Source: Chiloscyllium plagiosum
Taxonomy: Eukaryota
Reading direction: 5' to 3'
NCBI RefSeq assembly: GCF_004010195.1
Contig: NC_057718.1
Location: 43,780,280-43,844,279 of the forward strand
DNA length: 64,000 nucleotides
Part shown: positions 751 to 64,000 of the stretch, piece after piece
How the letters are laid out: each line of letters opens with the position of its first letter
How positions within the stretch are numbered: the first letter of the stretch is position 1
Translations under genes and position numbers: made by a program
The notes under the pieces: generated by a model
What the model was told of the DNA's origin: nothing
Databases searched by the model: none
The model's input: the letters and a program-made list of their open reading frames with translations, nothing else

Positions 751-885
751 TTTAAAATCTAGTAGTAACCTAGCTATCTTATTCCGGGTAATTCACTGTA
801 CACTTACTGAAACAAATTGCAAAGTTAGATCAAGGGCTGCCTGCTTAAAGATGTTTTGAGTGGTCTAGCTGAGTCCATAACAGAT

Positions 886-905
886 TGGGAGCTCTTTGCG
901 GAATT
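886..905 (+). promoter_or_regulatory. Degenerate primer-binding site, tRNA-Pro-like
   Basis: TGGGAGCTCTTTGCGGAATT lies 3 nt after the LTR end and resembles TGGGGGCTCGTCCGGGATT. Confidence 0.55.
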
Positions 906-982
906 TTAAACAGCGAGTGGTAGGTGCTAGTGTCTTTATTTCAGGTGTTGACTTAGTTGGGTAGACAAAGCTTGGGATAGGA

Positions 983-3900
983 ATGGCTCTTTCAGTCGCC
1001 AAAAGATTTCTGGAAGTGGATGTGATGACTTTGGAGGTTTTGCAAGAAGTCAATAAGACCAAGCTGCAGGAATTAGCAGACCAGCGGGGATTAGAACTGC
1101 CTCCTTCTGTGAGGAAAGGAGAGATAAATACAGCAGTAGCTCAGCATTTAAACTTGCTGGCGAAACCATCAGAATCTATAGAGTTGGCAAGAATTCAATT
1201 GCAAATGAAACAGCTTGAGTTAGAGGCGAGAGGTAAGGAAAGGGCAGCAGAAATAAAACAGTTTGAGTTACGATTAAAAGCAAAAGAGAGGGAAAAAGAG
1301 AGCAGAGAAAGAAAAAGAGAGTGATTTTGAACTCCAAAAACTGAGACTTGAAAAGGAAAGTCAGCATAAAAAGCTGGAGATAAAGGCTGAGGATAAGCTC
1401 AGTGAGGAAGTAATGTGAACTCATGTGGAAGAGCAGAGAGTTAAAACAGCAAGGTTAGCAGCTGAAGTGGCTGGTGATTATTTGCTGGTCCATAAAACTT
1501 GGTTTGGCTTTCACTGTCAATTTCAGTCCATGAGGGATAGAAATTAGGGCAAAGAGAAATCCTCATGTGGAAAGGGAAAGGTAGATCTCAGTGAAGATTA
1601 TAAGGATAACTTATCACAGGGTAAAAAAGAAACCCTTGAGGAGTACAAAGAAGTTAAAAGGTTCAAGTGTTTTCATTGTAAAAAAGTGGACCATACAAAA
1701 TCAGTGTTGGTGGGCAAGGAGAAAGCCAGATGTAGGAAAGCAAAAAATTCTGGAAGTTTTGTTGGACTCTTAACAAAAGGCACAAGGAAAGTTAGACAAC
1801 TGCCTCAGAGTGTACAAGATGATCAGCGGTTGATTAAGGAGGAAGTGCCAGATCTGCTTAAAAAATATTCACGCAAGGGTAAAGGTTATTCAAATAGGCC
1901 AGGAGTAATAGGTAAGGAGGTTACAATATTAAAGGACACAGGATCCTCTCAGTCTGTAATGCTAAAGGGTGAGGAGACATGTACTACTGAGCGACTATTG
2001 CCAGAAAAGGTACTGGTAACAGGAATTCATGGTGAGACAAAAAGTGTTCTGTTATGTAAAGTGAGGCTAGAAAGTCCAGAGAAAAGTGGAAAATTTGTGG
2101 TAAGATATTAGACAAACTCTCAGCTCCAGGAATACAATTCATCCTTGCAAATGATATAGCTGATTCACCAGTAGGTGAAAAGCCAGTGGAGATGCAGGCA
2201 ACTGAAGACCTGGAGATGTTTTTCCATCAATTTTCCTTGATTGTGTGATCACAAGATCGCAGAGGGACAAGTTGAAGCAGAAGAGATCAAAAGGCACAGA
2301 TAAGGAAGCTGATATAGTGTTATCCCAAACTTTCTTTGATCAGATAAGTGGATCAGAGAAGTGCAAATAGGTAAACATGCAAGTATCTTTAGCTCCGCTA
2401 AACTGATTGAATTAAAGCAGAAAGCTGAGGAGTTTAAACAGTTATATCAAAAGGCATTTAGAAAGAAAGAAAGTGAATGCATTCCTATGTGTTATTACTT
2501 AATGAGGAAATGGAGACCATCACACATTCAAGCAGATGAGAAATGGGCAGAGATTCATCAAACTGTTTTGCAAGTAGGGTATAGAAAGGAGGTACTGCGT
2601 GAGCGTATGAGCTGCCACTTGGAGTTCATTTAAGGGTGAGGAAAACGCAAGCTGTAGTTGAATTTTGCAAGACGTCATACATGTCAGCAAATCGGAAGTA
2701 TTTAAACACATGATTTACCTTTAATACCTATTCTAGCATTTGAGGAACCTTTCACAAGAGTCTTGATTGATTGCATAGGACCCCTACCTCAAACAAAAAG
2801 TGGGAATAAGTATTTATTAACAATAATGGATGTGTTGACTAGATTTCTATAGGCAATTCCATTATGCAGCATCAAGGCTAAAAGAGTTGTAGAAGAATTA
2901 CTTAAATTTTTTACTAGATACAGGCTACCAACAGAGATTCAGTCAGAGCAAGGATCCAACTTTACATCCAAACTATTCAAGGAGGTTATGGATAACTTTG
3001 AAATGAAGCAGTTCAAATCTACTCCGAACCACCCGGAATCGCAGGGACCGCTAGAGAGATGGCATCAAAAACTAAAGACGATGTTGAAGGCTTATGGTCA
3101 GGATTACCCAGATGATTGGGATAAGGGAATCCCGTTTTTACTTTTTGTGATCAGAGATGCACCAAATGCATCAAAAGAATTGGCCAAATTCCGTCCATTT
3201 GAATTAATTTTTGGGGATGAAGTAAGAGGACTGTTAAAATTGATTAAGGAGAAATTAATAAGTCAGAATTCAGAGACCACCTATTTGGAATATGTGCCAA
3301 ATTTTAGAGGACAATCAAATAGAGCTGGAGAGTTGATTGGACAGCATTTAAAAGTATTACAGCATACAATGAAACAAGAAGTGGATAAGAAATTACAAAT
3401 TCGCAGTGTTACAATTTGGGATAAGGTATTGGTGTTACTTTTGGTAACAGGTGAGCCTTTAAAAGCAAGGTTTAATGAACCTTATCAAATTAAGAAGAAA
3501 TTGAGTGAGGTGAACTACTTAATAAGGCCTCCAGACAGGAAGAAATCTCACAGAGTGTGTCATGTGAATAGGCTCAAAAGGTATTTTGATAGGGAAGGAA
3601 AGCAAAAGGAGAAGGTGTTAATGATTACAGCACAGAAGGAAGAACCAAGTTCAGAGGAATCTGAATTGAACATTCCTCAAATCAAATTGGACAATGAGGA
3701 AGTTGTCAAAAATTGGGATAAATTATTGAGTTAGTGTTAGGTAAGGGGTAAATGTAGGGGTACGGGTGGGTTTCGCTTCGGCGGGTCGGTGTGGACTTGT
3801 TGGGCCGAAGGGCCTGTTTCCACACTGTAATGTAATCTAATCTAATCTAATCTAAAAATAATCTAATCTAAAACCAAGTTCAGAGGAATCTGAATTGGAC

Positions 3901-4610
3901 ATTCCTCAAATCAAATTGGACAATGAGGAAGTTGTCAAAAATTGGGATAAATTATTGTGTTACCTTCCACAAGAAAATCAAGATGGTGATTTTTTAGTTA
4001 CTCATGGAAGGGACATTTACAGCATTTATTGGACTTGTTTGATCGACTTTGGAAGGCAGGCTTGGGGTAAACCTAGTTAAAAGTGAATTTGCCAAAGCCC
4101 AAGTCACCTTCCTGGGCCATGTCATTGAACATGGATAAGTGGCCCCACGGGATGCGAAACCAAAAGTAATTGAGGAATTTCCCACACTGTCAACAAAGAA
4201 AGCAGTACTACAGTTCCTGGGGATTGAGTGGATTTTACTGAAAGTTTGTGCCAAACTTTAGCAGCGTGGCTGCTCCACTCACCGAATTGTTAAAAAAGGG
4301 CAAGAAGTTTCAGTGGACAGTGGACTGTCAGAAGGTATTTGACAGTCTAAAAACTATGTTAATCACTACCCCAGTGTTAGCCGCACTGGATTACATGAAG
4401 CTTTTCAAGGTGGCTATTGATGCCAGTGATGTGGGTGTCGGTGCAGTGCTCCTGCAGGAGGATAAAGAAGGAATAGAAAGACCCATCGGGTATTTTTCCA
4501 GGAAGTTGAACATTCATCAACAGAAATATTCAACAGTGGAGAAAGAGACTTTAAACTTGATATTGGTATTACAACATTACAGTGTTTAAATTACCAGCAA
4601 TGCATCTAAG
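983..4610 (+). mobile_element. Decayed Gmr1-like Gypsy gag-pol (gag, zinc knuckle, protease, integrase, partial RT, RNase H)
   Basis: CFHCKKVDH knuckle near 1667; ILKDTGSSQS protease near 1926; integrase IDCIGPLP..IQSEQGSNF..HPESQGPLERWH at 2760-3065; RT C-terminus near 3985-4240; RNase H IDASDVGVGAVLLQ..YFSRKL at 4415-4510. Many stops and frameshifts. Confidence 0.92.
3734..3871 (+). mobile_element. 5'-truncated HE1/V-type SINE with (TCTAA)n tail
   Basis: GGACTTGTTGGGCCGAAGGGCCTGTTTCCACACTGTA plus (TCTAA)n; flanked by a 91-bp direct duplication at 3643-3733 and 3872-3962. Confidence 0.85.
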
Positions 4611-4619
4611 CCTTTTGTA

Positions 4620-7600
4620 CAAAAGCGAAGTTAAGTCCATAGTACAACTTGATCATCAATATCCCTGCAGGTTGCTCTATTATGAGTGGGACATACATAA
4701 GATCAAATTCAGTTCAGTTAAAAACCTATACTGGTAACGTGGTGGAAAGGTGTTGTCAAACGGAGTGCAATTTCCAACATAAAGACAAGTCACTTGAGTT
4801 ACCAGTTGTATAGCAAGATACATCAACAAATCAATGTTAATGGGAATAGAGTGATTTCAAAAGCCAAATGTAGACTTAAAGCATGGTTCCTAAACTGAGA
4901 AGACTAAGAAACTTGATCGGTTACTGACAAGATGTCGCAATATTTTCAAGGACAGCAATAAAGGTATAATTGGTATGGAACTGCACCTCTGACTGAGGTT
5001 TGGTGCAAAGCCAGACAATTTTCTTATCCTGTTAAAACCTGCGTTCGAGAAACTGAAGAGGCTAGAAAACTGAAACCAGCTCAATATGATTGAGAGAGCT
5101 AATGGTGTCACATGGTAATAGACATATGGGTTTACTCATACATCAATGAGCCTATTGGTTATGCATTTTCCAAAAGTCTTTAAAACTACATTGAGAGAAA
5201 TTTTGCATGGAGTGCTGCATAGCTTATGTAATCAGGAAGATGTATTGATTAAGACTACAGCAGAGGGAGATAATCTTCAAGTGTTGATGAAGTGCAAAAA
5301 AAGACTCAGTGATCACAATGTAAAGTCAAAAATAAGCTAGTTTGCTTGAGTGCAAACTGAGACAGTGTACTTTTGCAGGTAAATCATTGAAAAGGGGCTA
5401 CAGCTTATGAGAGGCTTTATTTGTCTTTGGGCACTAACTAATGTGCCTGAGTTTCAGTCTTTTCCAGGTATAGTACAATATTTCTCTCTATTTTCACCTG
5501 AGCTTGCAACACTGTAAGCTCCACTATATGGGCACAATAGAAATGGGGAGATTATTCAAGGACCAGCTACTGCGGGTCCTTGATAAGTATGTACCGGTCA
5601 GGCAGGGAGGAAGTTGTTGAGTGCGGGAGCTGTAGTTTACTAAGGAAGTTAAATGTCTTGTTAAGAGGAAGAAGAAGGCTTGTGTTAGGATGAGATGTGA
5701 TGACTCAGTTAGGGTGCTTGAGAGTTACAAGTTAGCCAGGAAAGACCTAATGAGAGAGCTAAGAAGAGCCAGGAGGGGACAAGAGAAGTTGTTGACAGAT
5801 AGGATTAAGGAAAATCCTAAGGCTTTCTATAGGTATATCAGGAAGAAAAGAATGACTAGAGTAAGGTTAGGGCCAATCAAGTGGTTGATGTTGTGTATAT
5901 GGATTTCAGTAAGGCATTTGATAAGATTCCCCATGATAGACTATTGCACAAAATATGGAGGCATGGGATTGAGGGTGATTTAACGGTTTGGATCAGAAAT
6001 TGGCTAGCTGAAAGAAGAAAGAGGGTGGTGGTTGATGGGAAATGTTCATCCTGGAGTTTGGTTACTATTGGTATACCACAGGGATCTGTTTTGAGACCAG
6101 TGCTGTTTGTCATTTTTATAAGTGACCTGGATGTGGGCATTTAAGGATGGGTTAGTAAATTTGTGGATGACACCAAGGTCAGTAGAGTTGTGGATAGTGA
6201 GGAAGGATATTGTAGATTACAGAGAGACATAGATAAACTGCAGAGCTGGGCTGAGAGGTGACAAATGGAGTTTAATGTGAAAAAGTTTGAGGTGATTCAC
6301 TTTGGAAGGAGTAACAGGAATGCAGTGAACTCGGCTAATGGTAAGATTCTTGGTAGTGTAGATGAGCAGAGAGATCTCGGTGTCCAGGTACATAGATCCT
6401 TGAAAGTTGCCACACGGGTTGATAGAATTGTTTAGAGAGCATACAGTGTGTTAGCTTTTATTTGTAGAGGTATTGAGTTTTGGAACCATGAGATCATGCT
6501 TCAGCTGCACAAACTTTGGTGCGGCCACATTTAGAGTATTGTGTACAGTTCTGGTCACCACATTATAGGAAGGATGTGGAAGCTTTGGAAAGGGTTCAGA
6601 GGAGATTTACCAGAGTGTTGCCTGGTATGGAAGGTAGGTCTTATGAGGAAAGGCTGAGGGAATTAAAGTTCCTTTCGTTAGAGAGAAGAAGGTTGAGAGG
6701 TGACTTAATTGAGACATATAAGACAATCAGAGGGTACAATAGGTTGGACAGTGAGAACATTTTTCCTCAAATGATAATGGCTAGCACGAGGGGACATAAT
6801 TTTAAATTGAGGGATGACAGATATAGGACAAATGTCAGAGGTAGTTTCTTTACTCAGAGTAGTAGGGGCATGGATTTCAGTAAGGCATTTGATAAGGTTC
6901 CCCATGGTAGGCTATTGCACAAAATATGGAGGCATGGGATTGAGGGTGATTTAATGGTTTGGATCAGAAATTGGCTAGCTGAAAGAAGAAAGAGGGTGGT
7001 GGTTAATGGGAAATGTTCATCCTGGAGTTTGGTTACTAGTGGTATACCACAGGGATCTACCTGCAACAGTAGTAGACTCGCCAACTTTAAGGGCATTTAA
7101 ATGGTCATTGGTTAGGCATATGGATGAGAATGGAATAGTGTAGTTTAGATGGGCTTCAGATTGGTTCCACAGATCGGTGCAACATCGAGGGTTGAAGTTT
7201 TTGTATTGTGCTGTAATGTTCTATGTTCTATATGAATTGTTGAAGAAAGACCTGAAATATGAATAGTCCAAAGCATAACAAGGTATTTATGATACATATA
7301 TGGAAAGATTTACCAGTGATACATTACTCATTCATTACAAGCAGAAGTTACCTTGTGATGGTTGGAACCATAGTGTTGGAGCAGTGATCAGTCATGTCAT
7401 TAATGATGGTCAAGAGAAGACCATGGAGAATTCACATCTCAATGTATAAATGCAAATATACACAGAAAGAAAATGAAGTACTTGTGGTCAGCTTTAAAAT
7501 CAAAGTATTTCATCAGTTTCTGTTGAGTAGAAACTTTGTGCTAGTACAGGTCATAAACCTGTAATTGCTATTCTGGGAGAAAGTGTACAATCTCAACAAT

Positions 7601-9480: not shown

Positions 9481-9683
9481 GTTTTGGTGAATGTATAGGA
9501 GACATTAAATTTGCAAACGACGTTGTTATACACTTGGCGGCTGCATCCACTAATGTGTCATTGTCAATCTGGATGGATGCTTATCATCTGACAGGATTGG
9601 TAACTGCAAAGAAAATAACTTCATTGTTGTATACACCAGGAAGGAACATGTATATGATAACGGTTTGCATCCATATTTTACTG
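9481..9683 (+). pseudogene. USH2A: USH2A exon relic (about human exon 28), frameshifted, donor lost
   Basis: Acceptor ttccaag at 9474-9480. Reads GFGECIGDIKFANDVVIHLAAASTN, then a 1-nt loss near 9555, then VIVNLDGCLSSDRIGNCKENNFIVVYTRKEHVYDNGLHPY (human GFGGCMKDVKF..VRVNLDGCLSTDSAVNCRGNDSILVY). No GT at the expected end; the 3' boundary is approximate. Confidence 0.9.
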
Positions 9684-9758
9684 AACCTTTTCACACTAAT
9701 TTTTCATACAGATTTTTCAGTACTAACTTCCAACATATAATATGTAACATGCTATTCT

Positions 9759-9835
9759 TATGAACAGAGTTATTGCAACAAATGATTAAGGCTTAATATC
9801 GGGTCTTTTGGAGCGAGGGCATGCAACATAAGAAG
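9759..9835 (+). pseudogene. USH2A: USH2A exon relic (about human exon 29) with two in-frame stops
   Basis: RVIATND*GLISGLLERGHAT*E aligns without gaps to human RVIASHEGGSVYSDWSRGRTTGA. TAA at 9787 and 9829; phase-1 donor GTAAAT at 9836; acceptor not recognisable. Confidence 0.8.
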
Positions 9836-26225: not shown

Positions 26226-28799
26226 CAATAAATATTAATTTTCCATTACAGCCTCCAACATTTCTGCCCACCATGACTCTACCCATAATGCCCTCCCCAA
26301 AGAACGCCATCCCACTCTCACTCTCCTGAGCTCAGGAATCCAACTGCATTCCCTGGTGAAGATATCAAGTACTATTGGCAGTAGCCAGTAATCGTGGTGA
26401 CACACCCAGCAAGAAAGAGCTGACAATCTCTGATTGGCTGGTAGCTCAGGGGCTGGAGAAAGTTTCCACTTTCTTGCTCCTAAATTCCAAGTAATCTAAC
26501 TCCACTCAGGCATCTAATTCAGTCAGGTTTGCCCCTTAGCAGCCAAATCAGTTTCCCGTGGGTTCTTTGAAAAATGGGCTGAACCCTTGCCAGTTATATC
26601 AAATTCCACCCCATAATTTTCTAAAGCAAATAGAAATGAAAGTTCATGAAGATCTGATTGTAAAACTGAATATTAAATTCTTGCTGTATTCCTTCAGACA
26701 AGGAATAAATCTGATTCCAGCTGTGGCACAGATTATTTCATATAAAAAGTTGGTAATGCATACTATTAATCAGACCCGGAGTGATCTCTGCAATAGTTTT
26801 AATTGCCTAAGTGAATCAGAGATGAAATTTTCAGCTTTTGTCCTTTAGTTGATTGTGTGTTTTAGTTGGTTTCTCACCTCTTCAATCTTATATGGTTTCC
26901 ACGTCGAGTGAAATGAGATATGAAAGAGTTGTAATATACAGGTATGACATTTATGAGGGACAAGGTGGGTGGGCTGTGTCTTTATTTTTCTTATATTTTG
27001 CAAACACTGTGGATTGCTTAAGCTATTTTATGCAGCTAGATTTTCAACAAAGCTGAATGGGATGGATGATAAAATAGACAGGCTTATTTTCAAAAGTGTT
27101 AGATGATTTCATGGTGTTAGAAGTTAATGTGTAGTAACTGCTTAAAAGTCTCCCTTTATGTGACTAACTTAACAATACACCTCTTTACTTGGACAGTTTT
27201 ATTTTACATTGTTAACATAATTTTATAATTGAAAAGATATATAACACTTTTTTTGTGTTTGCTAATGGTGAACAAAGTATATGTGAGGGGAAACTGGCTT
27301 TTGGAGTGGGAGAAACTAAACTGTTTTCATGGAGTGACTTGTGAGTCCACATATATTTCTGTTGGGCTAATCATCCATCATCCTGCCAGAAAGCTTCTTG
27401 GGTGTTGCCACTGTGTCCCTTGTGTAGTCATTTGTAATAAAATAATAACCATCTGGTATTCCTGTAATAAGCAATTAGTTACATTTGAAAGCAAATAATT
27501 TTTAGGCAACTGAATAAAGTATAACTGATTTTAAATGTTATTTATAATTTGGTTTAACCTAAACCAATGTGTTAATGTGCACAATAGTCTGATGTACATT
27601 TTCAAACTCGACTTACATCAGACAGGCCTTAGTTTTTGCTTCATTTTCAATGTTGTTATGACTGGAAATTATTTTGTTCAACTGGCTGATTAGTACCACT
27701 GTCTGTAATATACATCAACAAAGATGTGCCTTGATTTTGGATTATTAAACAATAAATTAAATTATGAAACATTAATGTCGTATTGAATTTGCAAAGCTCA
27801 ACATTGAGAAAAACAATAATTGTAGACATTATGTGATATGTTTACATATTATTAGGCACACTATATAGTAGATTTTTCTGTTATTGGTTCATTATTGTGC
27901 CTATCAAAATCAATATGTGGTCTACTGGTTGTAAATATGACCTACACCCTTCCTAATTGTGAATGTCAGCCAAATTTATTCAGGCTAGCTTTTCTTTTGC
28001 ATGTACCGCTCAGTCAAATCTATTTCTTGACTTTAACTTAGGTCAATTTCCTTCTCATTACCACTCTTTCTCTTCTCAATGGGTTGTCACGTTCAGAAAA
28101 CAGTCGAAAGTTTTCACACTTTTTCAAGGCTTACAAAGTCTTTGCTGCTTAGTGCAATCAGAAACAGACATATTTGATGCAAGATGTGTATAAAGTTTTC
28201 TTTGAGGGAAGAAACCACTTTAGGAAGGTATCTCACCTGGAGGCCTGGTTTGCAGCTGATTAAATCCATCATGAGACTCCAGGGAGAAACTAGTGTTATA
28301 ATGGAGAAAGACCATTGAAATTTGAAGCTGTGACCACAGCAGTCTGAAGGGACCACCTTAACCATTACTCTACCTGTCTTCCGTCAGATAGATTTTGAAG
28401 TTTATGACTGAACAGTGATTGTTCTAATCTTCACAGTTCCATTTGGGATTATGAAATGTGACAGTCACTCCCAGTTGTAAACCCAGTGTATCATTTTATT
28501 ATAAATTTCAAAGTATTTTGAAGAAGGATTATTGAAGTTAGTATGCTGAAAATCTGCATAGCTTTTTTTGTGAATTCATAGCAATACTTTTAAATGTTTA
28601 ATTATATGGAACTTTTCATGGAAGTCTGAAAAATAATCCTGTGTTCTCTGTTTTCATCTTTGCTACAAAGTTACAATGTTTAAATAATAAAGACTTACAA
28701 AATTTTTGCATTCAATTTACTGCAGCCTCTAATGCTGACAGATGTGTGGGCTTCATGTGGACTTCTGGTCTTTATCCAGCTCTTTTTTTTTCTTTCCAG

Positions 28800-28985
28800 T
28801 TCCACAAAATGTGTCAACTCCCTCAAGAATTCACAGTATAAATGGTTACAGAGTTAAGGTGAGCTGGGACGAGCCAGCTGAGGTCAGAGGTGTAATTGAG
28901 AAGTACATTTTGAAAGCACACAATGAGGACAGTCCCAGCACGCCCCTCATCAGAGCCAACTTTACTGACACCCGTTCCCTGGCAG
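28800..28985 (+). pseudogene. USH2A: USH2A exon (about human exon 30), FN3 domain, open frame with intact splice sites
   Basis: Polypyrimidine tract ending ttccag, 186 nt open reading (VPQNVSTPSRIHSINGYRVKVSWDEPAEVRGVIEKYILKAHNEDSPSTPLIRANFTDTRSLA), donor GTAAGC. Confidence 0.95.
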
Positions 28986-29369
28986 GTAAGCTCCACAGAC
29001 TGATGAAATAACCAAGAAAATTATTGTGTAATGAATGTAATGCAGATTGTGCCTTAATTGAATTAAAGGCTGGGTGATACAGATACAGACACCTGTCCAA
29101 TTACAGTCAGGATAAGGTGTTTACTGTTGCTGTATGGGGCTACATGAAGATGACAAGAATCATTCCTCCCACAGATTAACATAATGAAGAGGAACAGATT
29201 ATAATAGTTGCTGGCCAGTCTCTGATGTGACTGCACAAAATGTAGAAGTGTATTGGTAGCACATTTCTGCAGGCTGCATTCTTAGTATTTTAATTTGCTT
29301 GTTTTACGCTGTTACTTCTGTATAATAAGGTAATTTAAACTTGCCAATTCTTGTTTGTTCCTTTTATAG

Positions 29370-29479
29370 AAAACTTGACTGATCTGATTCCTTTTACAAA
29401 TTATAGAATAGCACCGAGTGTCTGCACATTGGCTGGCTTTTCAGACAGTGCACATGGTAGCTTACAACACCAGAAGAAG
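29370..29479 (+). pseudogene. USH2A: USH2A exon relic (about human exon 31), frameshifted
   Basis: Acceptor ttttatag. Reads NLTDLIPFTNYRIAPSVCTLAGFSDSAHG, shifts frame, then LTTPEE. Length is 110 nt, not a multiple of 3 for a phase 1-1 exon. The conserved GC Cys has become Phe; donor is GTAGAG. Confidence 0.9.
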
Positions 29480-29920
29480 GTAGAGCATTTAAAGAGGTTT
29501 TAACTTCTACATTTCTATGATGAATAATAAAATAGGTGAACAACTAAAGAATTGCAAAGCCATTTACTGGAAAACTCCAACCTAATTTGATGACAAAGTA
29601 CATTGCCAGACCATAATTGTTCCGTTTTTGGTGAGAAAATGAATCAAACTCGATACCGTTTAATGACATGCATCTTTAATAGCTGTAATGCAGATTAATG
29701 GGCTTTTTAATTGCTGTTACATTGTTCATGCAAGAGCCTCGTCGTTAATATGAGGCATCTGAAAGATTAATGAAAGCTTCTTCATTTTACTACAGCAGAG
29801 AAGTAAATCCAGGGACAGTCTGACTAAAAAGAATTGATTGTATGGCAAAGTATGAAATTGGAAATCAGATGCTTGATTTCCATGAGGTTCTTAAACCGAC
29901 AAAGTATTTTTTTTCCTAAG

Positions 29921-29938
29921 CTCCTTAGGATGTTCAAG
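29921..29938 (+). pseudogene. USH2A: USH2A: 5' 18 nt of the exon-32 equivalent (candidate micro-exon) with a nonsense codon
   Basis: Acceptor ttttttttcctaag, then (G)CT CCT TAG GAT GTT CAA G = AP*DVQ versus human APQEVQ. Homology stops abruptly. Confidence 0.75.
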
Positions 29939-30548
29939 TTTACCACATTATTTAAGCCATTTTATTTAACCTTCAAGTTCATTATTTGGAATGCCTCTGC
30001 TGCTTACTAGGCAATAGGTTTCGATTTTGCCATGATGTCTAAACAGATCCTTGAATATGCTTCATATCCATGAAGACAGTGCAGACCACAACCTCAGCCT
30101 TATAAATTTCATTCAAAACTGCAAATGACTTCGAAATTTTAGTGCCGAGGAACAGATTCTTCTATAGCAACATATAATAGATTTACTTTGCAGTGCTGTG
30201 AAGAGCAATTACTATTTTTAATCTAATTTGCCTACTGTTCCTTGAATACCTAAGTGGAACCATGGCGTGAGTTTAACAAGAGATTAACACTGAATAAAAA
30301 CAATACCTCAGAATTAATTTTACTTTAAATGCGCAAAAAAATCATTTTAAAATCAATAGCATGAGTGATCAGCTATTTTTATATATGTGTCTATAATGAT
30401 ATTGGCAAGTAAAACACAAGTATTGTAGATTGTTATTATTGAACACCATCCTATATGAAGAGTAATGGTTATTTTTAATCAATTACTTATATAATTTAGT
30501 GTCATTTCTTGCCCCTCATCATTTTAACCAAACTACCCAGTCCATTAA

Positions 30549-32700
30549 ACAACTATAGGGATGGAATCAAGATTTTCTTTTGAAAATGTGAGCATTTCTG
30601 GCAAGGTTACCATTTATTATCCATCCCTAATTGCCCTTGAGAGTACTATAGTGAGCCATCTCCTTGAACTGTAATAGCCCCATATGATGTCAATACACCA
30701 ACAATGCTGCAGGCAAGGGAATTCAAACTTTTTGAGCCAGTGACAGTAAATTAATGTATAAAATAGAGCTGAATCTTAGTGCTTTTTTGGTTAAGTGTCA
30801 GTTTTATCAAGTTTTTTTTTAAAAGATCTCTGTCCAGAAGGCCTAGCATGATCTTTCACTGTACCTTATGAAAATCACATCATTAGCAATCTACATAGCT
30901 ATTATGGTATCTCTCTTGACTAATTCCTGCCCAGCGTGCCATACCCCTTTCCTGGAAGAAATTGCCACTCACCAGTTGTTTATTAAAGAGCTGCATCACT
31001 GGCACCCACTCCATATTTAACAGGTCACTGTGCCCATAGATGTGTACTGGCATTCTGAAGCTGTCCTGCACAGTGTTTCACATTCAGTTAGAAACTGTTG
31101 GAGAAAGGGAAGGCAGTGCTATGATTCTCCAACAGGGACCTGGAGGATCTGGTGGGTTGGGTAGTCCAGAGGAGGTGCAATCTCTTTCTGGTGAACTGGC
31201 AGAGGAGGAAATAAAAAAGACCCTTGCAAACAGTCTGAGATGACAACCGGGTGACAGTGTGATCACAGTCCAGAGGAGGGGCCAGTAATGCCGCAGGAAC
31301 TTCCTGCTGTGCCAGGGTAAGTGCCGCCCTCTTTTCTCTGTATTTCATACTCACTTATCTCTGATACTGCAACCACCTCCAACCAAGGCTCATGCTCTGC
31401 TACTCTCACAATTGCCTTCAATATTTTCCCTCATTTGCTCTCACTCCCATACCATTCCTGTGAGTTGGCAATCAAGGACTTCATCCACACCCAGAGGAAA
31501 AACAGGAGCTGGAAACAGCCATGTGGGAGACAATGACCCTTAGGACCCAGAGGCTGCAGGATTGCAGCTATGCTAAGAGGACCCAGCTGACTCAATATCT
31601 GGCTGTATCCATGGACAGGTTGGTGGTTGCCATGGATAGCCAGGTCCAGCACCCTCAAGGTCTGTTGGAGAAATGCACACACCTACACTCTATTGCCCCA
31701 GCCATTGGTCCTCAGGACCAAAGTCAACAGGGTGGTGGGGAATCTGATGGCCCCTCCTCACAAGGAGACATCCAGCTGGAGGTAGGACCACAGACATGAC
31801 CCTCGAATTTATCTTCTCAGGACATGGCAGAGTTGGCCAGGCCTTTCGCCTCCACCTTGTCTGTGCTCCACCACCCCTGATCCTTGGAAGTTATAGCTGA
31901 GGACGGTCTCTGGCAAGAAGGCCCTGAGCATGCCCAGGTCATCAAAACATGACTGCTTCCAGGGTTTCCCTCCCACTCCACCAGGGCCAATAAGCTTCAT
32001 TTCAAACAGGCTCCGTCCCTCCAGCTGTGCGACGTGGGATAACACTGAGGCAGAGTGGAAGAGAAAGAAAGATAACATCCTTTTCCAAAAATGGAACTCT
32101 GGTGGCCCACATGACAACACAGTGTAAGTCACATTTGCAGAAATGTTATTGGTGCTGCACTATGATCCCTGTGGAACCCTGAATGTAACTGAGTCAATGT
32201 GATACTTATGGTGCATGCAGCATGCATCATGAACTGATGTCTAAATTGAGAGCTTTGTGCAGTATGTGGAAGCAAGATGAATAACATTTCTACAGCAATG
32301 GGCTGTGCTGACACTAACACTCCTCATGGTTGAATGTCTCTATTCTTTCTCTGGTCTCTATGTGCAATAAATGGGCCAGGGAGGTGAACAATTAATACGG
32401 AGTCAAGGCATTAAGATCATCAGGGATTAGGGAGCCAGCTGGTGTGTGCCCTGTACAACTACAGGGATGGAATCAAGATTTTCTTTTGAGAATATGAGCA
32501 TTTTTGGCAAGACTACCATTTATTATCTATTCCTAATTGCCCTTGAGAGTACTATAGTGAGCCATCTCCTTGAACTGTAATTGCCCCATGTGATGTCAAT
32601 GTGCCAACAATGCTGCAGGCAAGGGAATCCAAACTTTTTGAGCCAGTGACAATAAATTAATATATAAAATAGAGCTGAAACTTAGTGCTTATTTTGTTAA
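30549..32700 (+). repeat. 246-bp direct duplication (30549-30794 and 32455-32700)
   Basis: Gap-free alignment by eye, over 90% identical. Confidence 0.9.
30764..32454 (+). mobile_element. PIF/Harbinger-like relic (Myb/SANT gene)
   Basis: TIR-like GAGCTGAATCTTA start; a decayed Myb exon ends ..GCCAGG/GTAAGT near 31317; shares blocks with 15590-16070. Confidence 0.5.
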
Positions 32701-33399
32701 TGGACCAACGTGTAATGTTACTCCTCTCTAGGGGCCTGACTTTGGTAGGACTTAGAGGCCCACCTCTCATAGGTTGAGACGTTTACCCTGCTCAGTTTGG
32801 ATGTAGGTCACAGCCATTTTCTTTCCCATTCCATGCTTTCAATTTCCATCATGATGGAAGGTGACATCAGCCAATATCTTTAAGTCTCTGCCTTTACATG
32901 ACAGTGAGACCCTGAATGCCAATTTCTCCTTCCTGAGACCCCTTCCCATAATCTCAATAGGCTTTGCACCTCTCCAGGTACCCATCCAACACATCTACAT
33001 GTGGCTTTACTTCCCTACTATTTCCACCAGGCCCTGCTAAATGAGACAACCATGGTCATACACTGTCTACCCCTTAAAACCAGGCTGCTCCTGATCATGG
33101 AATACCCCTGTCCTGTGTTACCCCATTACCATCCATGTTTTACCATATCCCCTCCTTACAAATACAATTGCCTGCCTTCACATTGTCATCCTCTCATGGC
33201 CCCCAGCCTGCAACCCCTATTCCCACAAATATGTTCCTGAGTCTCCTTACCACAGTAGTGATGGGTGAGGCGAGAAAAGCTCATAAGGTTCTTAACAACC
33301 AGTATGTTTCCTAAATAGGCAACTCATTGCTGACTAGCAAGTATCTTGCCTCAACATCCATCAGTTGAATAAAAGATGATGTGAGGGACTTCTGAAATT

Positions 33400-34340
33400 G
33401 AATAGGCCTTGTTGGACTTCTCATTCACTTCTGCCACAAATTATGCCATAGCCAATATTATTCTCGAGTGTCACTGAAGCTATATTCATCCAGATATCTG
33501 GAAAGCTTCCAAAATACTCTTGACTTAGGGTTTATGGATGATACACAGGCTTTGGGGACTCAAGAGGTGAGTTACCTGCCACAGAATTTCCAGCTCTGGC
33601 TTTCTGTGGTAGCCACAGTATTTATTTGAATGGTTAATTGTAATCGTTAGTTTGCTGATGGTGGGGGATTCAAAGTTGTTACTTTGTTTTATTCATTCAA
33701 GGGCTAAGAGCTTTAATGGCTGAGCTAACATTTATTGCCCATGCCTAATTGCCATGGAGAAAGTGGTGGTGAGCTGTCGTCTTGAACTGCCGCTGTCCAT
33801 TTGGTGCAGGTACACTCACAATGTTGTTTGGGAGGGAATTCCAGGATTTTCACCCAATAACAATGAAAGAAGAGCAATATATTTCCAAGTCAGGATGGGG
33901 AGTGATTCATTGAATGTTAAGGGGAGTGGTTAGATTCTTTCTTGTTGGACAGGCAATGCCTGCCACTTGCATGACACAATATTATTTTCATTTACCTACC
34001 CTAAACGTTATCCAGGCAATGTATCTATACCAGCATCTGAGGAATGGCAAATGATTCTGAACATGGCCATCATTTGCAAACAACCGCATTTCTGACCTTT
34101 GATAAAACAATTGAGAATGTTTTGGCCAGTACCGCTGACAAACTCCTGTAATTATGTTTTGGAGCTGAAGTGACTGGCCTTCAACAATCCTAGCCATTTT
34201 CCTTATATTATGCATAATTCCAACAGTGGAGAGTTTTTACCAATTCCCATTGATTTCAATTTTGCTGGGGTTCCTTGATTCTACACACACTCAAATGCTG
34301 TCCTCATGTCAAGGGCAATCACTTTCACATCAGCTCACCA
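33400..34340 (-). mobile_element. Non-LTR LINE fragments (same family as 19415)
   Basis: QRSEMRLFAND and a 3' end at about 33690-33900. Confidence 0.65.
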
Positions 34341-37300
34341 ATTTCTATGTAGATAGATCAATTTATGTGTTGAAAGAGTTTCTTTTCATGCATTACATAC
34401 TGCACTTAATAAATTTCCTTCTTAGTCTTTTCCTTCCTGGTCCTGGTAAATTAAATATTTTGCTTGATGATTTGAATCAGAAAGATCAGTCATTTTCAGA
34501 TTCCTACTTTCTCTCCACAGGCAATAGTTCACCTTTTGAGTAGTTCCAGCATTTCCTGATTTGTGTTTTAGATTTTCAGCACTATAGTATTTTGCCTTTT
34601 GTATTAATAAGTTTGATATCCGTTCTGCACTGCAGAATAAATTAGGCCCTCTGTATTTCTGTAGAGTTAACTCTTTTCAAAGACTATTACCTGGAAATTC
34701 CTGTTAGTTAAACCCAGAATGTTTGCATGATATTCCTTCTGTTTGCTGGTTCAATGGTGTTAAATAACCTGTCAAAGACATGTCATGTGATTATGTTCAA
34801 CATTTGTCCATTAATGTTACCAGTAATCATTTTGAGGGTTTTAGTTCTAATTAGAGTTTTTCATAAGGTAGATTGTGCTTTCGCTTATCACATACAAAAA
34901 CTGGTATTTATTGCAGAAATTTTATGACTTCAATTCATTAGCCAAATATTTAAAATTAGAAATTCTAACATTTATTGAAGCAGAAAGAAGTGAGAATACT
35001 CAAAATATTTTCAATCACCTAAGTATCCAAAAAACATATTAATTATTATGAAAATAGGCATTTCAAATTCAAACCTACAACAGAAGTTATTGCATTTTCT
35101 CAGTTCTGGAATTTATAGGACAACCACTTCAATACTCGATACTTAGGCTGCATGGTAATTACCCCACACATTCCACCCAATTCAAATTTAGTATTGGTGA
35201 TATGATATGCATTTGTAAATGTTGAAATGATCCAGTGCTAGTTGTCTAAGACTGTTCAATTTTGTAGAAAGCAAACTAATAAAGTTTTATATAGAGAGAT
35301 TAAAAATATTGAGGCACAATATGTAGACAGTGGTGAGGACTCAACGATGTACCACTTGTACAATATGCGTGAATTTCATTTCAGTGAAATCAATGTGATG
35401 TAAAACAGTTCAGTTGCAATGGCTGTTGTGGTGCAATGTTTGTGTCTCTATCTTTGGGCATCAAGTTCTAGATTTGAGGACTACCTGTCAACAAAGCGTG
35501 TCTGTTCATGTCTGAACAGGTTTATTTCAACAACAAAAAAAGTTTCACAATGGACATCTGATCAGTTTTACTAGTTAATTTGCTCAGGCAATTAAAACTT
35601 ATCCCTCAGTTTTTCAACCTTATTCAGGAAACCTTTATTTGACCAATAAGGACAATAAGTCACAGTTAAATCCATAATATAATTACAATATATCTTAGTA
35701 GTGCTGTCACCAAGAACAAATCCTTAAGCATCATAATTTGTAAGAAAATCTAATTTATTTCCAAAGCTCTGCAAGTGACGCCAATTCCAGGAAGCTGTAA
35801 TATTTTCCATCGTATTTCTAATTTAAACATTTTGTGACTTATTCAGTTCTATACATCTCAAAAGTATTTGCTTAAATTGCACCACTTGCTTGAAAGCTTA
35901 TACCAAGATTGACATTAATAGGACCATGAAGTAATACAACTGCATGCTAACTGTTCACCTACAGCAAAGGCTATTGATTTTTTTTCATGAAGTGCTGGGA
36001 TAGTGTGATATGCAGAGTCTGATATTGACATTTGGTCTTGCCTTGGGTAAGTAAATTTTGACCTAGGGCATGCAGAGTATTCATCATGGAAAAACTTCCA
36101 TGCTGGAAAATGCATTGACATCTTTTGATGTTTACAATCACGACTGATGCAGTTCAGTCTAATAAAGATGCAGTAGAATGGAGACTAAATCTGTCTGTTT
36201 GTATTGTAATGATCATATTTGAATATGTAGTTATTCTGCTTTAATATATCTTCATTATAATGTTACTAAATGGTATAATAGATCCAATGTATGAAGAAAC
36301 AATATTGGTATCTTTTTAAATTAAAAAATAAACTAAGGCATGTACTTTGTTGTGATTCACAACTATATCTGTGATGTATAATTTAGCTTTATTTCAGATG
36401 TGAGACAAATATGTCCATTCCAGGTTTTCACTTAACATGGAAAGCTTCTCCATCTCAAGTTTCTGGGAGTAAACTGTTCTACCAAATAAGATAATGAAAG
36501 GAAATGTTCATCTTTAGCTAAAGTGCCTTCCCCATGAATTGTTGTAACATAAAAATATTGTTTACAACAAGAAGTATCACCTGAAATGAAATAAGCGATC
36601 ATCAGAGTGTAAAAGTTTTTTTAAAAACTGAGGGAAGTTTTTCAGGTACACTTCAGTCATGTTTACTTACCTGAAAAGTAAATGGTTACTGCATTACAAA
36701 ATCTCTTTCACTTGTTCACTTGATAATGGATGGATGAAAACTATCAGGGTGATAACTGTGTAGTTACTTGAATTACTGGCCACAAGGTCACTGGGTAGTG
36801 ATCAGTTATAGAAATACTACTATCTTTTCTCCTCCCTGCATTGAGGATATGAAAGACAATACTTGGACCCACACTTTCAGGTTGTGGAGATAAACCAATT
36901 CATTTCTTGAGTATGAAGTCTGGGACCTTCTTATCTGTACAACTCCACCTCCTACTTGATAAACTTGAAAAAATGAACTTTCTAAACCAAATCTATAACA
37001 CAACCATACCACTTACATATAAATATCAAATAATCCACCTTGTGCATACTATAATGTCTGTCTTTCATTAGCCTTTTACTGTTGTGGAACTCTGAGACAG
37101 TTCTCCCCTGATGGCTGCAACACAATTGGTAAAAGTATCTAACTTTCAGTGAATGAGAATGCATATGGCCTTTCAAGATGACATTAAAGAGCTAACATGC
37201 TGAATACCCATTTTTGCATTGCACCATTTCAATACTGTTTTGTAAGGAAAGCAGCTATCTGATAACATTGACGTCAGATCTCAGGTCAAATAGTGTTTAG

Positions 37301-37399
37301 AAGCCCTTAATGTAAGATGGTCATACAAGCATCTTTCCCTGTTTTGTATATATTATACATAGTTCAATAAAAAGATTTTAGTTAAAGACTAGCTGCACA

Positions 37400-38960
37400 T
37401 TCATCTCTGAGCAGGTTCGCAATAAAATGGCAATGGTGAAACCACAAAATTGTTCTTTAGATTAGCACGAAAGGTACCCAGCAGTGCAGAGAACTGATAA
37501 AGGCAAACAGTGGCAACAACCATGCTCTGACACAATACCAAGAATGGCAGACTATGCAGCAAGACAGGCAAAAGCAACAAGTAATCTGTTGCACTTTGTA
37601 AGCCCCTTTGAACATGGAAGTTTGCAGCCATGATGCTAACAGTCTGAGTTTGCGTGAGAACAATTTGAGCTGATGTGGCAGCCAGCTGACTTTGCATGAT
37701 GTCAATTTGAGCTTTCAGCATGGCATCAATAATTTGATGGTTTTTGATAGGGCTGTTTTGGAAGTTGAGATATTGGCCACTTGATCATACTACAATGTTA
37801 ATCCACAAATACACTCTTGGAGTTGACTAATACTTCTGTATCGAAAGGATGAGCTCTGAACTACATGAAAGCCATGTGCCAGATTGGTGCCAGACCCCAT
37901 CAAGTGCAAGCTTAATGGAAGATCTATTGTTGCTCCAAACATTTCAATGTCCAAACCATTTGCCTTCTTCTGCAGGTCACTTTGCCAACATTCTCACCTG
38001 AATTCTCTCCAGTACTACTCAAATGTTACATTGTCTTTCAGTCAGCTGGAACTTGCCCAGCTTCACACTTGCCCGGTTGCAGGCTGATCATGCACAATAT
38101 CTCACCATGAACGATCACAATTCTAAGCTATCCTCTAATGAATGCAACCTGTCAACATCTGGGCTGACAGCTACAAGTCTGAGAGCAAGTGACAGGGCTT
38201 CCACTTCATCACTGACTTCCTGCTTTGATACATATTGATTTTTCATCACTATCTAGACAGGTTACAGATCTTGGATATCTGAAAGGAGATAGGCATAAAG
38301 CTAGGTTTACCGCGGGAAGAGAAAAAGCATCGAGGTACGTGCTTGCACCAGCTGCAGCTTTCAAATCATAAGGAATGGTGGGATAAGGAAGAAGTGGAAT
38401 ACGAGCAGGGAAATTAAATATGAGCATCACTGTCAGCAACCTCAGCTATGGCCACTTCATTGATGGAAAACCCTATTTTCCTCATTGCAGTAAGGACACA
38501 CAGCCTTGCCTGACTGCACCAGTGAGATGCTGCTGTCTCCAGTTTTATGTCAGTGTTCTTGCAAGAGAGAGGTGAGTATGTCAATAAATGTGGTTCAATC
38601 TGTTTGGATAGTGGGGCAATCATGGTTGAACACCTGGCAGTATGTAGCATGCTGTAAGATGAGGGTGTGATATTGTGCCAAATGTGTGACACATAATGAA
38701 ATTATAAATGCTAGATGTGAGTTATGTTTGATTGTGCGGAGGTGAGTGATGGCAAGGTAGGCCAATTAGTAAGATGTGACATTTGAAGATCTCACCAGTC
38801 ATATGTGGTCATTGAGCTTCATCAATATCCTCAAGGTTAAATTCATAGCATCATCCACCATAGCTATCTAATTTTTTTGTCTCCATGACATTTGTGGGAA
38901 TGAGTGTTATGATGGGACAAACTGGTTGGCTGGTGACTAAGACACTGGCCCCACAGATAA
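37400..38960 (-). mobile_element. PIF/Harbinger-like Myb gene relic
   Basis: Minus strand IAMVDDAMNLTLRILMKLNDH near 38800-38870 and a Q/A-rich coiled-coil-like ORF at 37401-37721. Confidence 0.4.
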
Positions 38961-38984
38961 CTTACTGATTGCCAACTAATCATT

Positions 38985-39181
38985 GAGTCATAGATTCATA
39001 AAGTTGTACAGCATGGAAACAGACCCTTCAGTCCAACTTGTCCATGCTGACCAAATACTCTAACTTAATCTAGTCTCATTTGCCAGCATTTGGCCCATAT
39101 CCCTCTAAACCCTTCCTATTCATGTACCCATCCAGATGCATTTTTAATGTTGTTATTGTACCAGCCTCCACCACTTCCTCA
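38985..39181 (-). mobile_element. CR1 3' end
   Basis: CAGCATGGAAACAGACCCTTCAGTCCAAC..GTACCAGCCTCCACCACTTCCTC. Confidence 0.85.
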
Positions 39182-40332
39182 GTAAGAGCTGACAGATGAT
39201 GAGGCTGAGTATCTTGCTCTAACACGGGAAACCTGGGTTGTCAGAAGGTACAACTAGTCAGAGACTGACAGCTTTAAGGTCCTAAAGTTTTTTGATCGAG
39301 GCCTACTTCCTGGAGTAGCCAGTAGTGAGAAGGTAATTTTTTTCATCTTCTTATAGGGTGGTGTAAGAAGGGAGTCTGGGGACTTTTGAACACAAGGGTA
39401 GGGTGAGCTATTAGAGGTCATTTCATCCACACCTCTGCTTTTCACCAGATGTGGGCAATTGGAGCAACCCAACCCCAACTGCCACCTGCAAGAACTCAGC
39501 AGGCAGGTTACCATGGTTTCTTAATTGCAAAACTAGCCATTTGTCTTGCTCATTGGGGAGGCAAGTGATCGGGAAGTAGGGGTGAGTTGCAGCCCTAAAA
39601 TGACCATGAATTAGCCACTTAAGGTTTTTATTTGCTGCTAAGTTATGAAAACTGCTCATTACCATGAGTGATTTGTTGGTGGGGAGAAACAAGATTCAGG
39701 TGTGTGTAAGAGCACGTCTCCATAAACAAGAGACAAAGTGTTTCATGGGCATTCATGACCAGCAGTGAATTGCAGAAATGCCCAAGAAGTGGGTAAGTTT
39801 CTCTCCAGGGCAAACCTGTTTAATTATTTCTCTTTTTTTCACCATGTCCAGGAAGGGGAAAATTGCACCTTGTGCAGAGTCTCCTGGTCCCCTGGGAATA
39901 GGTGACATCTTTCCTCCTCTGCATCTCCTATATTAAGTGGTGTTAAGATCAGAAAATCAGTGAAATCTCGGACCTGTTCTCTGTCATGTTGTGCCATTAT
40001 TATATTTTTCTCTGGTTGAATCAGTTGCAGAATTACTTCAGGAATCTGTTTATGCCATAGTGCACCTATCTTTAAAAGGTGCAGATTGGCTTTAAGCTGC
40101 GGAATGACTTTTAACTCGTGCTTGTCTCTGACATATTTTTCAACCTCTGATGATGCACATGCACACTTATCAGCCCATTTAGTACTGGCTGCTTGCTGGA
40201 ATCATTGAACATCAGCGTGAAGTGTACTGGAGTAACTGACATGTTAATCCTGCATTGCAATCTGCATGTCCATTTTTGAGTTCTTATTGAATTTTGCAGC
40301 CTATTTTGTCAAATGTTATTATTTTATTCTAG

Positions 40333-40476
40333 GTCCAACTGCTGTGCCTTTTCATACATTGTTACTGGTATCATAGCCTTTACCAAATCATGCAAATGCT
40401 ATTATCATCAATTATTCAATGTTCAAAGATGGCCAACTCATCTATAAAGGCAAAGAGCAAACATGCACTGTAACTA
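40333..40476 (+). pseudogene. USH2A: USH2A: remaining 144 nt of the exon-32 equivalent, Trp to stop, donor mutated
   Basis: Preceded by ttattattttattctag. Reads PTAVPFHTLLLVS*PLPNHANAIIINYSMFKDGQLIYKGKEQTCTVT versus human PVAKSLPSSLLLSWNPPKKANGIITQYCLYMDGRLIYSGSEENYIVT. TAG at 40374; donor reads ATAAGT instead of GTAAGT. Confidence 0.9.
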
Positions 40477-40852
40477 ATAAGTTTTGGGTTTTGTATTAGA
40501 CCCAATGAAGTAAAGTGCTTGATTCAAAAAGTACAATATTTTGTTCTTAATGAAACATTGGAAGTAAAAATGTCAGAAATATATTGAGTGCAAATGTGAG
40601 GAAGTAAAAAGTTATATTGCTATAATTTAATTGCATATGCAACATTTAAATTATCTACTAGAATGACTAGTTTGTTTTGACTTGTTGTTAGATGGCATTA
40701 TCACAGGCGATATATAAGAGTGAATTATTGTCATTTCATATATACACTGAATTAATTTAAAATTCAGAAAAGGTTGAATACATCCTTTATACACTGATTA
40801 AAATAAACTGACTTTGTGAAGTGCATTATTTTGGCTTTTGTGCTTCCATTTA

Positions 40853-41438
40853 GAGTGGAATCTTGTGGAATTGCAGGGGTCAAACTGTCAGATGGAGAGC
40901 TAGCAAGGGCCCAGTGGATCCTCTTTGCAGGAAACTCTACCCATCAGGCACTTAGAAGGACAATAGTGGCCTTGCCCTCAGATCAAGGACACTTTGGAGG
41001 TTGGGGGAGGAAGGCTTATGTGCCTGAAACCAGCAGCTCTTGTGTCACTGAGGAGATAGTGGCAGAATGACATTCAACTGAGGGTTAAAATCATTGCTGG
41101 AACCTAGGATAGAGGTGAGTGATGGCAGGACAAGAGTTAAATGGGATCACTGGGTGACAAGAAGGTGATGAGCTTGGTGTGAAGACAAAGGTGGGTACCC
41201 CCCACACTGAGTGATTATTCCTTCCCCCAATTCCATATGGCTCAAAGGCTGTAAGCTATGCCCTATAGATTATTTGATATGTTGGACTGTCAAAACCTGA
41301 AAGTGGGGATTTGGTGGTGAGGAAAGAGGCTGCACACTTATTGAGGGAGGATGACTGGGTCCTCATATGTCGTTGTCCCTCAAATTAAATGCTCCCCTCG
41401 ATCAAACCTGCCATGGGGAAGGACGTAAGATTTTGCCC
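40853..41438. mobile_element. Harbinger-like non-autonomous element
   Basis: Imperfect TIRs GAGTGGAATCTTG and TAAGATTTTGCCC, with TTA on both sides (40850-40852, 41439-41441). Confidence 0.55.
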
Positions 41439-59554: not shown

Positions 59555-59671
59555 GGTTAGCTGGCTATTCCCCACATCAGCTCGTGCTTGAAGCATGCAC
59601 AGTTGTTGGCTATGCAAACAGTTTGCAGATCACTGTGTTTATATCCTGGACTCAAGAAGCATATATGTGCA
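59555..59671 (+). pseudogene. USH2A: USH2A exon relic (about human exon 33) with an internal frameshifting deletion
   Basis: Acceptor ttcttctcttacag. Reads LAGYSPHQLVLEACTVVGYANSLQITVF, lacks about 15 codons (2 nt remain), then ILDSRSIYVQ. Phase-2 donor GTATGT. Confidence 0.9.
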
Positions 59672-63402: not shown

Positions 63403-63567
63403 GTGGAATGAACCTGCAGAAATTAATGGTCATCTTGAACTTTACTTTCTATATGTTTGGGCCAATGAAGAGAATTTAAGGAACATAAATGTAATAGCTC
63501 CCAACTAGTTGTGAATTTCACTGTGGGATAATTTGAAACTGAGACAAAATACTTTATAAAACTTTCT
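63403..63567 (+). pseudogene. USH2A: USH2A exon relic (about human exon 34) with frameshift, stop and degenerate donor
   Basis: Acceptor aatttag. Reads WNEPAEINGHLELYFLYVWANEENLRNIN, about 7 nt lost near 63491, then NSSQLVVNFTVG*FETETKYFIKLS. TAA at 63529; followed by GCATCT rather than GT. Confidence 0.88.
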
Positions 63568-64000
63568 GCATCTATGTGCTATTAAAACTTAAAATGTTGA
63601 AATCTATGTTAACGGTTTTATGCCAACCTTGTGAGATTTTGATTTTTAAAAATAATCTGTTAGTATATGATGTGTTGTCTGGAAAGGGTCTCCATATGGA
63701 CAAACATAATGGCATAACTAAATTTGTAATCCAAAGTGCCCCTTTTCCATCACTTTGTGTTCACCTGCAAATTTTACCAACTCAAGCCACATTGAATTTA
63801 GGATTACTTTCTAATTGAAATATTACTTGGGGGAAAAAAAAGATTATTAGCTGCTGAGAGGGCACAGGTTCAATACTATGCAAGGTTTTAAATTCGTAGG
63901 AAATGTGATTGAATCAATGCCCTGACATCATCTCAGCCATTTCTGGGTTTGCTGATGAGGCTTTCAGATAGGTAACTTTTATTTGTGAAAACTTACTGTT

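Follow-up and report, generated by a model that had tools for sequence, protein, structure and literature searches.

The stretch of DNA considered here (the window) comprises 64,000 nucleotides (nt) of contig NC_057718.1 of the shark Chiloscyllium plagiosum. Its + strand carries seven colinear exons of USH2A, the gene for usherin, equivalent to exons 28–34 in a numbering after the human gene that in part we take as given. A stop, a frameshift, or a deletion is seen in six of the seven, the sole exception being exon 30. The equivalents of exon 28, which has a frameshift, and of exon 29, a weak match with two stops, lie within 9481–9835. Exon 30 (28800–28985) retains its frame and splice sites, exon 31 (29370–29479) is frameshifted, exon 33 (59555–59671) has lost about 15 codons internally in addition to a frameshift, and exon 34 (63403–63570) has both a stop and a frameshift and a 3' end past recognition. 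Exon 32 is in two pieces and is the main subject of this report.

From exon 28 to exon 34, the identity to the usherin of the basking shark, Cetorhinus maximus, is 60, 36, 94, 63, 55, 44, and 48% (the exon 33 value being depressed by its internal deletion), compared with 78–100% for the same exons in sharks with an intact gene. USH2A in this window, with its colinear usherin exons and disabling lesions, is thus a pseudogene. In a decay simulation, the exon identities fit about 15–20% neutral change per site, which would have left ample time for insertions. Splice donors have decayed as well, since the 3' piece of exon 32 has AT for GT and exon 28 appears to have no GT. Literature searches, whose coverage leaves out most subscription journals, brought up no study of how USH2A was lost in sharks or of its exon structure there.

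Exon 32 is interrupted in frame

The exon 32 block consists of an 18-nt piece (29921–29938) and a 144-nt piece (40333–40476) separated by 10,394 nt (29939–40332), so that the two pieces sum to 162 nt. Both are in frame, with ends at phase 1, and together they give 54 codons that align to shark usherin without a gap. Recomputation agrees with the coordinates and lengths given in an earlier description made from the letters alone (the sequence-only reading), and the ungapped alignment that it proposed for the human peptide holds against the shark protein. For its further statement that human exon 32 measures 162 nt, no printed source was found. Indirect support comes from marmoset, whose exon 32 block is 54 residues long, and from the finding that skipping of human exon 32 preserves the reading frame (PMC10258241).

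The 18-nt piece is preceded by the original acceptor of exon 32, a T-rich tract ending in AAG (29908–29920, + strand), which makes intron 31 441 nt long. It reads (A)P-stop-DVQ(G), matching five of the six residues of shark APKDVQ and having its stop at the position of the Lys codon, and no in-frame GT comes after it. When every position is scored for likeness to APKDVQ, this site is the only one as good among the 10,832 that separate exon 31 from the 144-nt piece; on the whole + strand, 2 of 63,780 positions score this well, and only 29921–29938 is preceded by AG. Furthermore, the phase-1 boundary in an Ala codon at 29921 matches that of primates, in which exons 30 and 31 together encode 102 residues (marmoset), equal to the 306 nt of the human exons (PMC10258241). 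The 144-nt piece begins GPTAVPFHTLLLVS, immediately followed by its one in-frame stop, and is identical to Cetorhinus at 27 of 49 residues. Although the GT of its donor has decayed to AT, all four bases at +3 to +6 are kept.

An apparent short and imperfect tandem duplication, in which two 8-mers recur with a period of about 39 nt, spans the 5' junction (29933–29987, + strand; read directly from the sequence). Neither copy has a GT after its AAG. The arrangement recalls a templated insertion at a repaired break, and a looser third copy may sit at about 40309–40324.

The ends of the segment as splice sites

As the sequence-only reading described, the first bases of the 10,394-nt segment are TTTACC, a GT begins one base before them, and its last bases are ttctag. 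The in-frame start is therefore TT, and a GT..AG intron beginning at the earlier GT would leave 161 nt of exon, out of frame. Splice donors carry the consensus RAGT at +3 to +6. Here, 0/4 of these positions agree when counted from the earlier GT and 1/4 when counted in frame, while five other donors of the gene score 3, 3, 1, 4, and 3. With general donor frequencies and an assumed decay of 15%, the likelihood ratio of a donor against background is 0.03–0.14. Judged as a U2-type intron, then, the segment has neither a frame-keeping GT or GC donor nor the donor consensus.

The 3' end does look like an acceptor, with TAG, 11 pyrimidines in 18, and no upstream AG, and in this respect it conforms to YAG with a pyrimidine tract. 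However, it is an ordinary acceptor rather than the "clean" one first described: it is matched or beaten by 24% of 4,236 AG sites (6.7% if YAG and the absence of an upstream AG are also required), and it is tied for the weakest of the seven acceptors that were scored. Micro-exons measure up to about 27 nt. The 18-nt piece would preserve the frame as such an exon and has its acceptor, but it has no donor and contains an in-frame stop. A second acceptor-like AG, at 40298–40299, precedes the 144-nt piece by 33 nt, equal to 11 open codons, within sequence that is in frame with it (40281–40332).

The two junctions resemble each other

The last 31 nt of the segment (40302–40332, + strand) match 29908–29938 in register at 18 of 31 positions, making this acceptor-like end a candidate decayed target-site duplicate. 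Next to the junctions, 6/8 and 7/10 bases agree, and five true introns of the gene give 2–4/8 and 3–4/10. No other of 282 acceptor-like sites reaches 18/31, and 0.19% of AG sites do so. Seven lengths were tried, however, and those other than 31 nt gave 0.7–8.9%; among acceptor-like sites, the background is 0.35–8.9% depending on the length, the site itself included, and a 7/10 match is reached by 3.5%. We regard a target-site duplication as only statistically hinted at.

Other sources of the junction sequences were considered and rejected. A tandem duplication from adjacent introns would leave colinear matches, but a nhmmer comparison of 13 overlapping pieces with the rest of the window returned dispersed repeats only, and nothing colinear with introns 29 or 32. 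Local alignments of intron 31 with the segment end and of the segment start with the 144-nt piece are at background level (84/105 and 18/104 controls score as high). The apparent extension towards 30314 of a repeat at 15.6–16.8 kb, which might have been an element ending at the junction, is a poor alignment that ends short of 29939. Finally, a long (40–150 nt) gapped target duplication gives 3.5–8.5% against acceptor-like controls, and no claim is made for it.

Content of the segment

The segment combines AT-rich unique DNA with dispersed repeats in a mosaic. Its GC content (39.7%) resembles that of the other introns of the gene, and repeats found by self-comparison cover 11% of it, compared with 8.5–15% in three introns. 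It is therefore no richer in repeats than they are, which qualifies the earlier description of it as full of old repeats. Direct repeats of 246 nt that are 92% identical (30549–30794 and 32455–32700) flank a GC-richer repeat of 1.66 kb, of which further copies occur near 15.6–16.1 kb and 53.7–54.3 kb. The 246-nt repeats look like an unusually long target duplication around the 1.66-kb insert, part of which may resemble the decayed remains of a Myb/SANT gene such as Harbinger-type elements carry, a likeness that Pfam did not confirm. At 38986–39186 there is a dispersed repeat of about 200 nt, a candidate short interspersed element (SINE) or tail of a long interspersed element (LINE), which shares 75–85% identity with four further copies elsewhere in the window. 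Because the 246-nt pair and the roughly 200-nt repeat are less diverged than the dead exons, the segment would appear to have grown after the gene died, and duplication-flanked insertions such as that marked by the 246-nt pair would have entered it later. There are no Rfam matches in 29400–41000, and the tandem repeats detected amount to five short rows, none of them long.

Usherin in relatives

Full-length usherin was found for seven chondrichthyan species. In the intact proteins, AP[KE]DV[QR] opens the exon 32 block, with AP[KE]DVQ in the intact sharks. The six residues are present in all 15 chondrichthyan models that span the site (seven species; 2 of the 17 records do not span it), including two lower-grade models, one of which is missing eight other segments. 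Likewise, none of 127 aligned usherins from vertebrates and invertebrates is without either piece. Since protein models do not reveal introns and most chondrichthyan models miss little, these counts lend weak support to an unsplit exon. The codon at the junction encodes Ala, Asp, Pro, or Thr in intact sharks and never Gly.

Whether bony vertebrates also have an intron at this position, a question raised in the sequence-only reading, could be addressed through protein models only. Those of birds point to one 54-codon exon, given that among 23 proteins, the 54 residues act as one block: one model lacks all of them, and three fragments stop at the last residue. The best 120 of 291 full-length matches include no usherin of a carpet shark or a ray, which is weak evidence. 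The absence of rays from these best 120 of 291 hints that they, too, may be without an intact model.

A word search with the 144-nt piece for open frames in the genomes of relatives yielded no candidate, and a profile search returned 19 proteins, at least 15 of them longer than 600 residues and none a short genomic frame. A metagenome scan with a five-shark exon 32 alignment found five loci among 143 candidate stretches, none of them at the exon 32 position. One (L002) is an usherin-like gene matching residues of about 2730–3230, a different position. The other four give weak, scattered matches of the kind expected of other FN3 proteins. L002 (1–4425) belongs to a marine-metagenome contig that carries this gene in several exons, and a further 10 kb upstream on that contig may cover the exon 32 position and so provide an outgroup for the intron.

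In sequencing runs, 20 of the 24 listed (three organism labels, seven studies) contain at least half of the words of 28700–30400. The best runs of organism A contain 0.85–0.92 of these words, more than the approximately 0.72 obtainable from the 5' side alone, so DNA from both sides is present in that organism, which does not imply that the two sides are adjacent. The shares for organisms B (0.68–0.71) and C (0.62) are compatible both with divergence and with absence of the segment. No RNA run is among those listed, which says nothing about expression.

Origin of the split exon

Taken together, these results lead us to consider it fairly probable that an old insertion into a dead or dying USH2A, later enlarged by repeats, splits exon 32. 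(The likelihoods attached to this and the other explanations are judgements and were not computed.) In this model, DNA, either an old transposon or DNA captured during the repair of a break, would have been inserted into a once-continuous 162-nt exon of a gene that was probably already dead or dying. The insertion would have duplicated a short target ending in AG, whose second copy, now decayed, would form the acceptor-like end of the segment, and a working donor need never have existed. Younger repeats would then have landed inside and enlarged the segment to 10.4 kb. The segment is predicted to be unspliced and to be without function. If so, the split is probably no more than a common kind of scar that a dead gene acquires and of little importance alone; as a rare shared marker, it could help to put the USH2A lesions in order and to establish when related sharks lost the gene. 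Biologically, the more important matter is that this shark has lost USH2A more widely.

The sequence-only reading had offered two explanations, insertion or intron, and the first is favored because the donor is missing, the junctions are alike, and the gene is disabled in six other places; its ancestral-intron branch is disfavored. An insertion is also favored beforehand, since young insertions occur throughout the introns of this dead gene, whereas intron change is reported to be slow and rare: it was lowest in Callorhinchus milii among the vertebrates compared (PMC3964593), and intron gain in vertebrates is described as rare (PMC12357937). The suggestion that the insertion was the inactivating hit gains no support. 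Decay has gone no further in the 144-nt piece than in exons 28, 31, 33, and 34, and a single sequence does not reveal in which order the lesions arose.

Several observations weigh against an insertion. A 6/8 match is reached by 4.6% of acceptor-like sites and is weak by itself, and a review reports direct repeats of at least 5 bp at 26% of conserved Drosophila introns (PMC3443670). When the 18-nt piece is compared with the 18 nt before 40333, all eight differences sit where the piece fits the shark peptide, a one-sidedness unlike the equal neutral decay of two copies. Either homology is confined to about the last 8 bases, or coding selection continued to act on the upstream copy after the duplication, which would amount to a true intron gain. 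In addition, no inserted element was identified. As the sequence-only reading noted, and as we confirm, no terminal inverted repeats or long terminal repeats (LTRs) are found at the segment ends (the comparison covering the 20 largest direct families out of 48 and the 25 longest inverted pairs out of 64). No Pfam family is found in the six whole frames of the segment, with 0 of 39 pieces above the curated cut-off, and its first 380 nt and last 1.1 kb have no other copy in the window (E below 1). Its first 600 nt are AT-rich (31.5% GC, as low as in 6% of windows) and so resemble the flanks of true introns. Lastly, exon 31, which has a true donor, also scores just 1/4, the donors of exon 28 and of the 144-nt piece are without GT, so that donor loss does happen in this gene, and the loss of 5 nt through one slippage event could be enough to abolish even a perfect donor here. 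Thus, we estimate that the donor evidence counts only about five- to tenfold against an intron.

Unlikely, though deserving serious attention, is a lineage-specific intron gain while USH2A still worked. Here, an insertion that duplicated its target across a proto-splice site, AG|G(T), would have created an 18-nt micro-exon, the second copy of the target drifting or being selected into a pyrimidine tract and the donor being lost after the death of the gene. The split preserves the frame exactly, its two ends both being at phase 1, and the joined exon reads AAG|GT, a context in which introns are described as arising from transposon insertion or tandem duplication (PMC3443670). Moreover, all eight changes within the 18-nt portion of the 18/31 match are on the downstream copy, four of them to T, as fits an upstream copy that alone stayed coding, and introns in the slc26a2 gene of notothenioids are reported to have been gained from transposon-like DNA (PMC12357937). 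However, no donor consensus remains, the acceptor is weak, and intact sharks have no Gly at the junction codon, so a proto-splice GT needs an extra change; the rarity described for vertebrate intron gain (PMC3964593 and PMC12357937) also speaks against it. Should events have taken this doubtful course, a true 10-kb spliceosomal intron was born in a working usherin gene, and the dead gene would be a fossil of intron birth, in a vertebrate group whose introns are among the most stable, in which the duplicated start of an exon turned into a pyrimidine tract. A spliced intron would offer a traceable gain in cartilaginous fishes, a group in which intron change is reported to be very slow.

We give rather little credence to an old intron common to cartilaginous fishes, whether it arose in their stem lineage or is ancestral and disappeared from bony vertebrates, with an 18-nt or 17-nt micro-exon in intact shark USH2A. 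The GC content and repeat cover of the segment are like those of other introns, its 5' end is AT-rich and unique, and its 3' end is YAG; furthermore, a phase-0 GT..AG intron followed by one later 1-nt deletion would explain the early GT and the Gly codon in a single event. Set against this, GTTTAC matches none of the four donor positions, the similarity of the junctions is not predicted (7/10 being found at few acceptor-like sites, as given above), and the six residues are dropped by none of the 15 chondrichthyan models, a weak point given how little most of the models miss. Highly improbable is an assembly error by which 10.4 kb of foreign sequence came to lie within the exon: the two pieces follow each other colinearly and in frame, nothing is lost or shared between them and their lengths add up to exactly 162 nt, the small duplication at 29933–29987 crosses the 5' junction, and the runs of organism A contain DNA of both sides.

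Survival of exon 30

The selective survival of exon 30 is a more surprising lead from this window than the split exon. Its open frame, which is flanked by a strong acceptor and a GTAAGC donor, keeps 59 of 63 residues of the basking-shark peptide, and the chance of this is about 4e-6 under the 70% retention expected from neutral decay. In a comparison of five exons across four intact sharks, conservation is highest in exon 30 (96% versus 83–94%); it is not the most conserved in sauropsids, mammals, otophysan fishes, or amphibians (46–75%). The added constraint on exon 30 thus appears only among cartilaginous fishes. USH2A adjoins ESRRG (PMC3033182) and is listed with it in an ultraconserved cluster comprising 72 elements (PMC3436827), and there are descriptions of exons that persist with a regulatory role after the loss of the host gene (Dong et al., PMC2831330). 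Two candidate explanations are possible on the strength of its conservation: exon 30 may be a shark-specific exonic enhancer in the ESRRG block, or it may be part of a surviving transcript.

Other features of the window

Exon 33 keeps both of its splice sites despite its internal loss, and intron 28 (about 9685–9755) is only about 70–80 nt long. Upstream of the usherin exons, broken open frames at 865–4589 resemble an LTR retrotransposon of the Gypsy type, with gag-, integrase-, and RNase H-like pieces as judged by eye. Pieces of LINE reverse transcriptase follow at about 5600–7100.

Comparison with known systems

The closest reference points are the intact chondrichthyan usherins, those of Cetorhinus maximus (XP_078412490.1), Carcharodon carcharias (XP_041063177.1), and Heterodontus francisci (XP_067901794.1), in which the residues of exons 28–34 occur in the same order within the FN3 region; the usherins of Scyliorhinus canicula, S. 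torazame, Mustelus asterias (XP_078086591.1), and Callorhinchus milii are alike. Unlike these usherins, which were compared as proteins, the gene described here has six of seven exons broken and the exon 32 block in two pieces.

With an insertion, by a transposon or through break repair, that duplicates its target site in the exon of a pseudogene, the interruption itself shares an in-frame break, similar junctions, no usable donor, and nested younger repeats. It differs from such an insertion in that the searches turned up neither terminal repeats nor a tail, no remnant of a protein, and no further copy of either end, and in that the duplication is no more than hinted at by the statistics. With intron gain at AG|GT proto-splice sites through transposon insertion, tandem duplication, or break repair (PMC3443670), as in notothenioid slc26a2 (PMC12357937), it shares the AAG|GT junction, the kept frame, the repeats at the junctions, and an acceptor-like 3' end. 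In contrast to those gains, its host gene is dead, there is no in-frame GT and no evidence of splicing, and the segment is 10.4 kb long. Exon 30, for its part, is like the regulatory coding exons and exonic remnants of bystander genes (PMC2831330), in which one exon stays conserved after the decay of the host gene; it differs from them in that its conservation was measured on protein only and in that its frame and splice sites are also intact.

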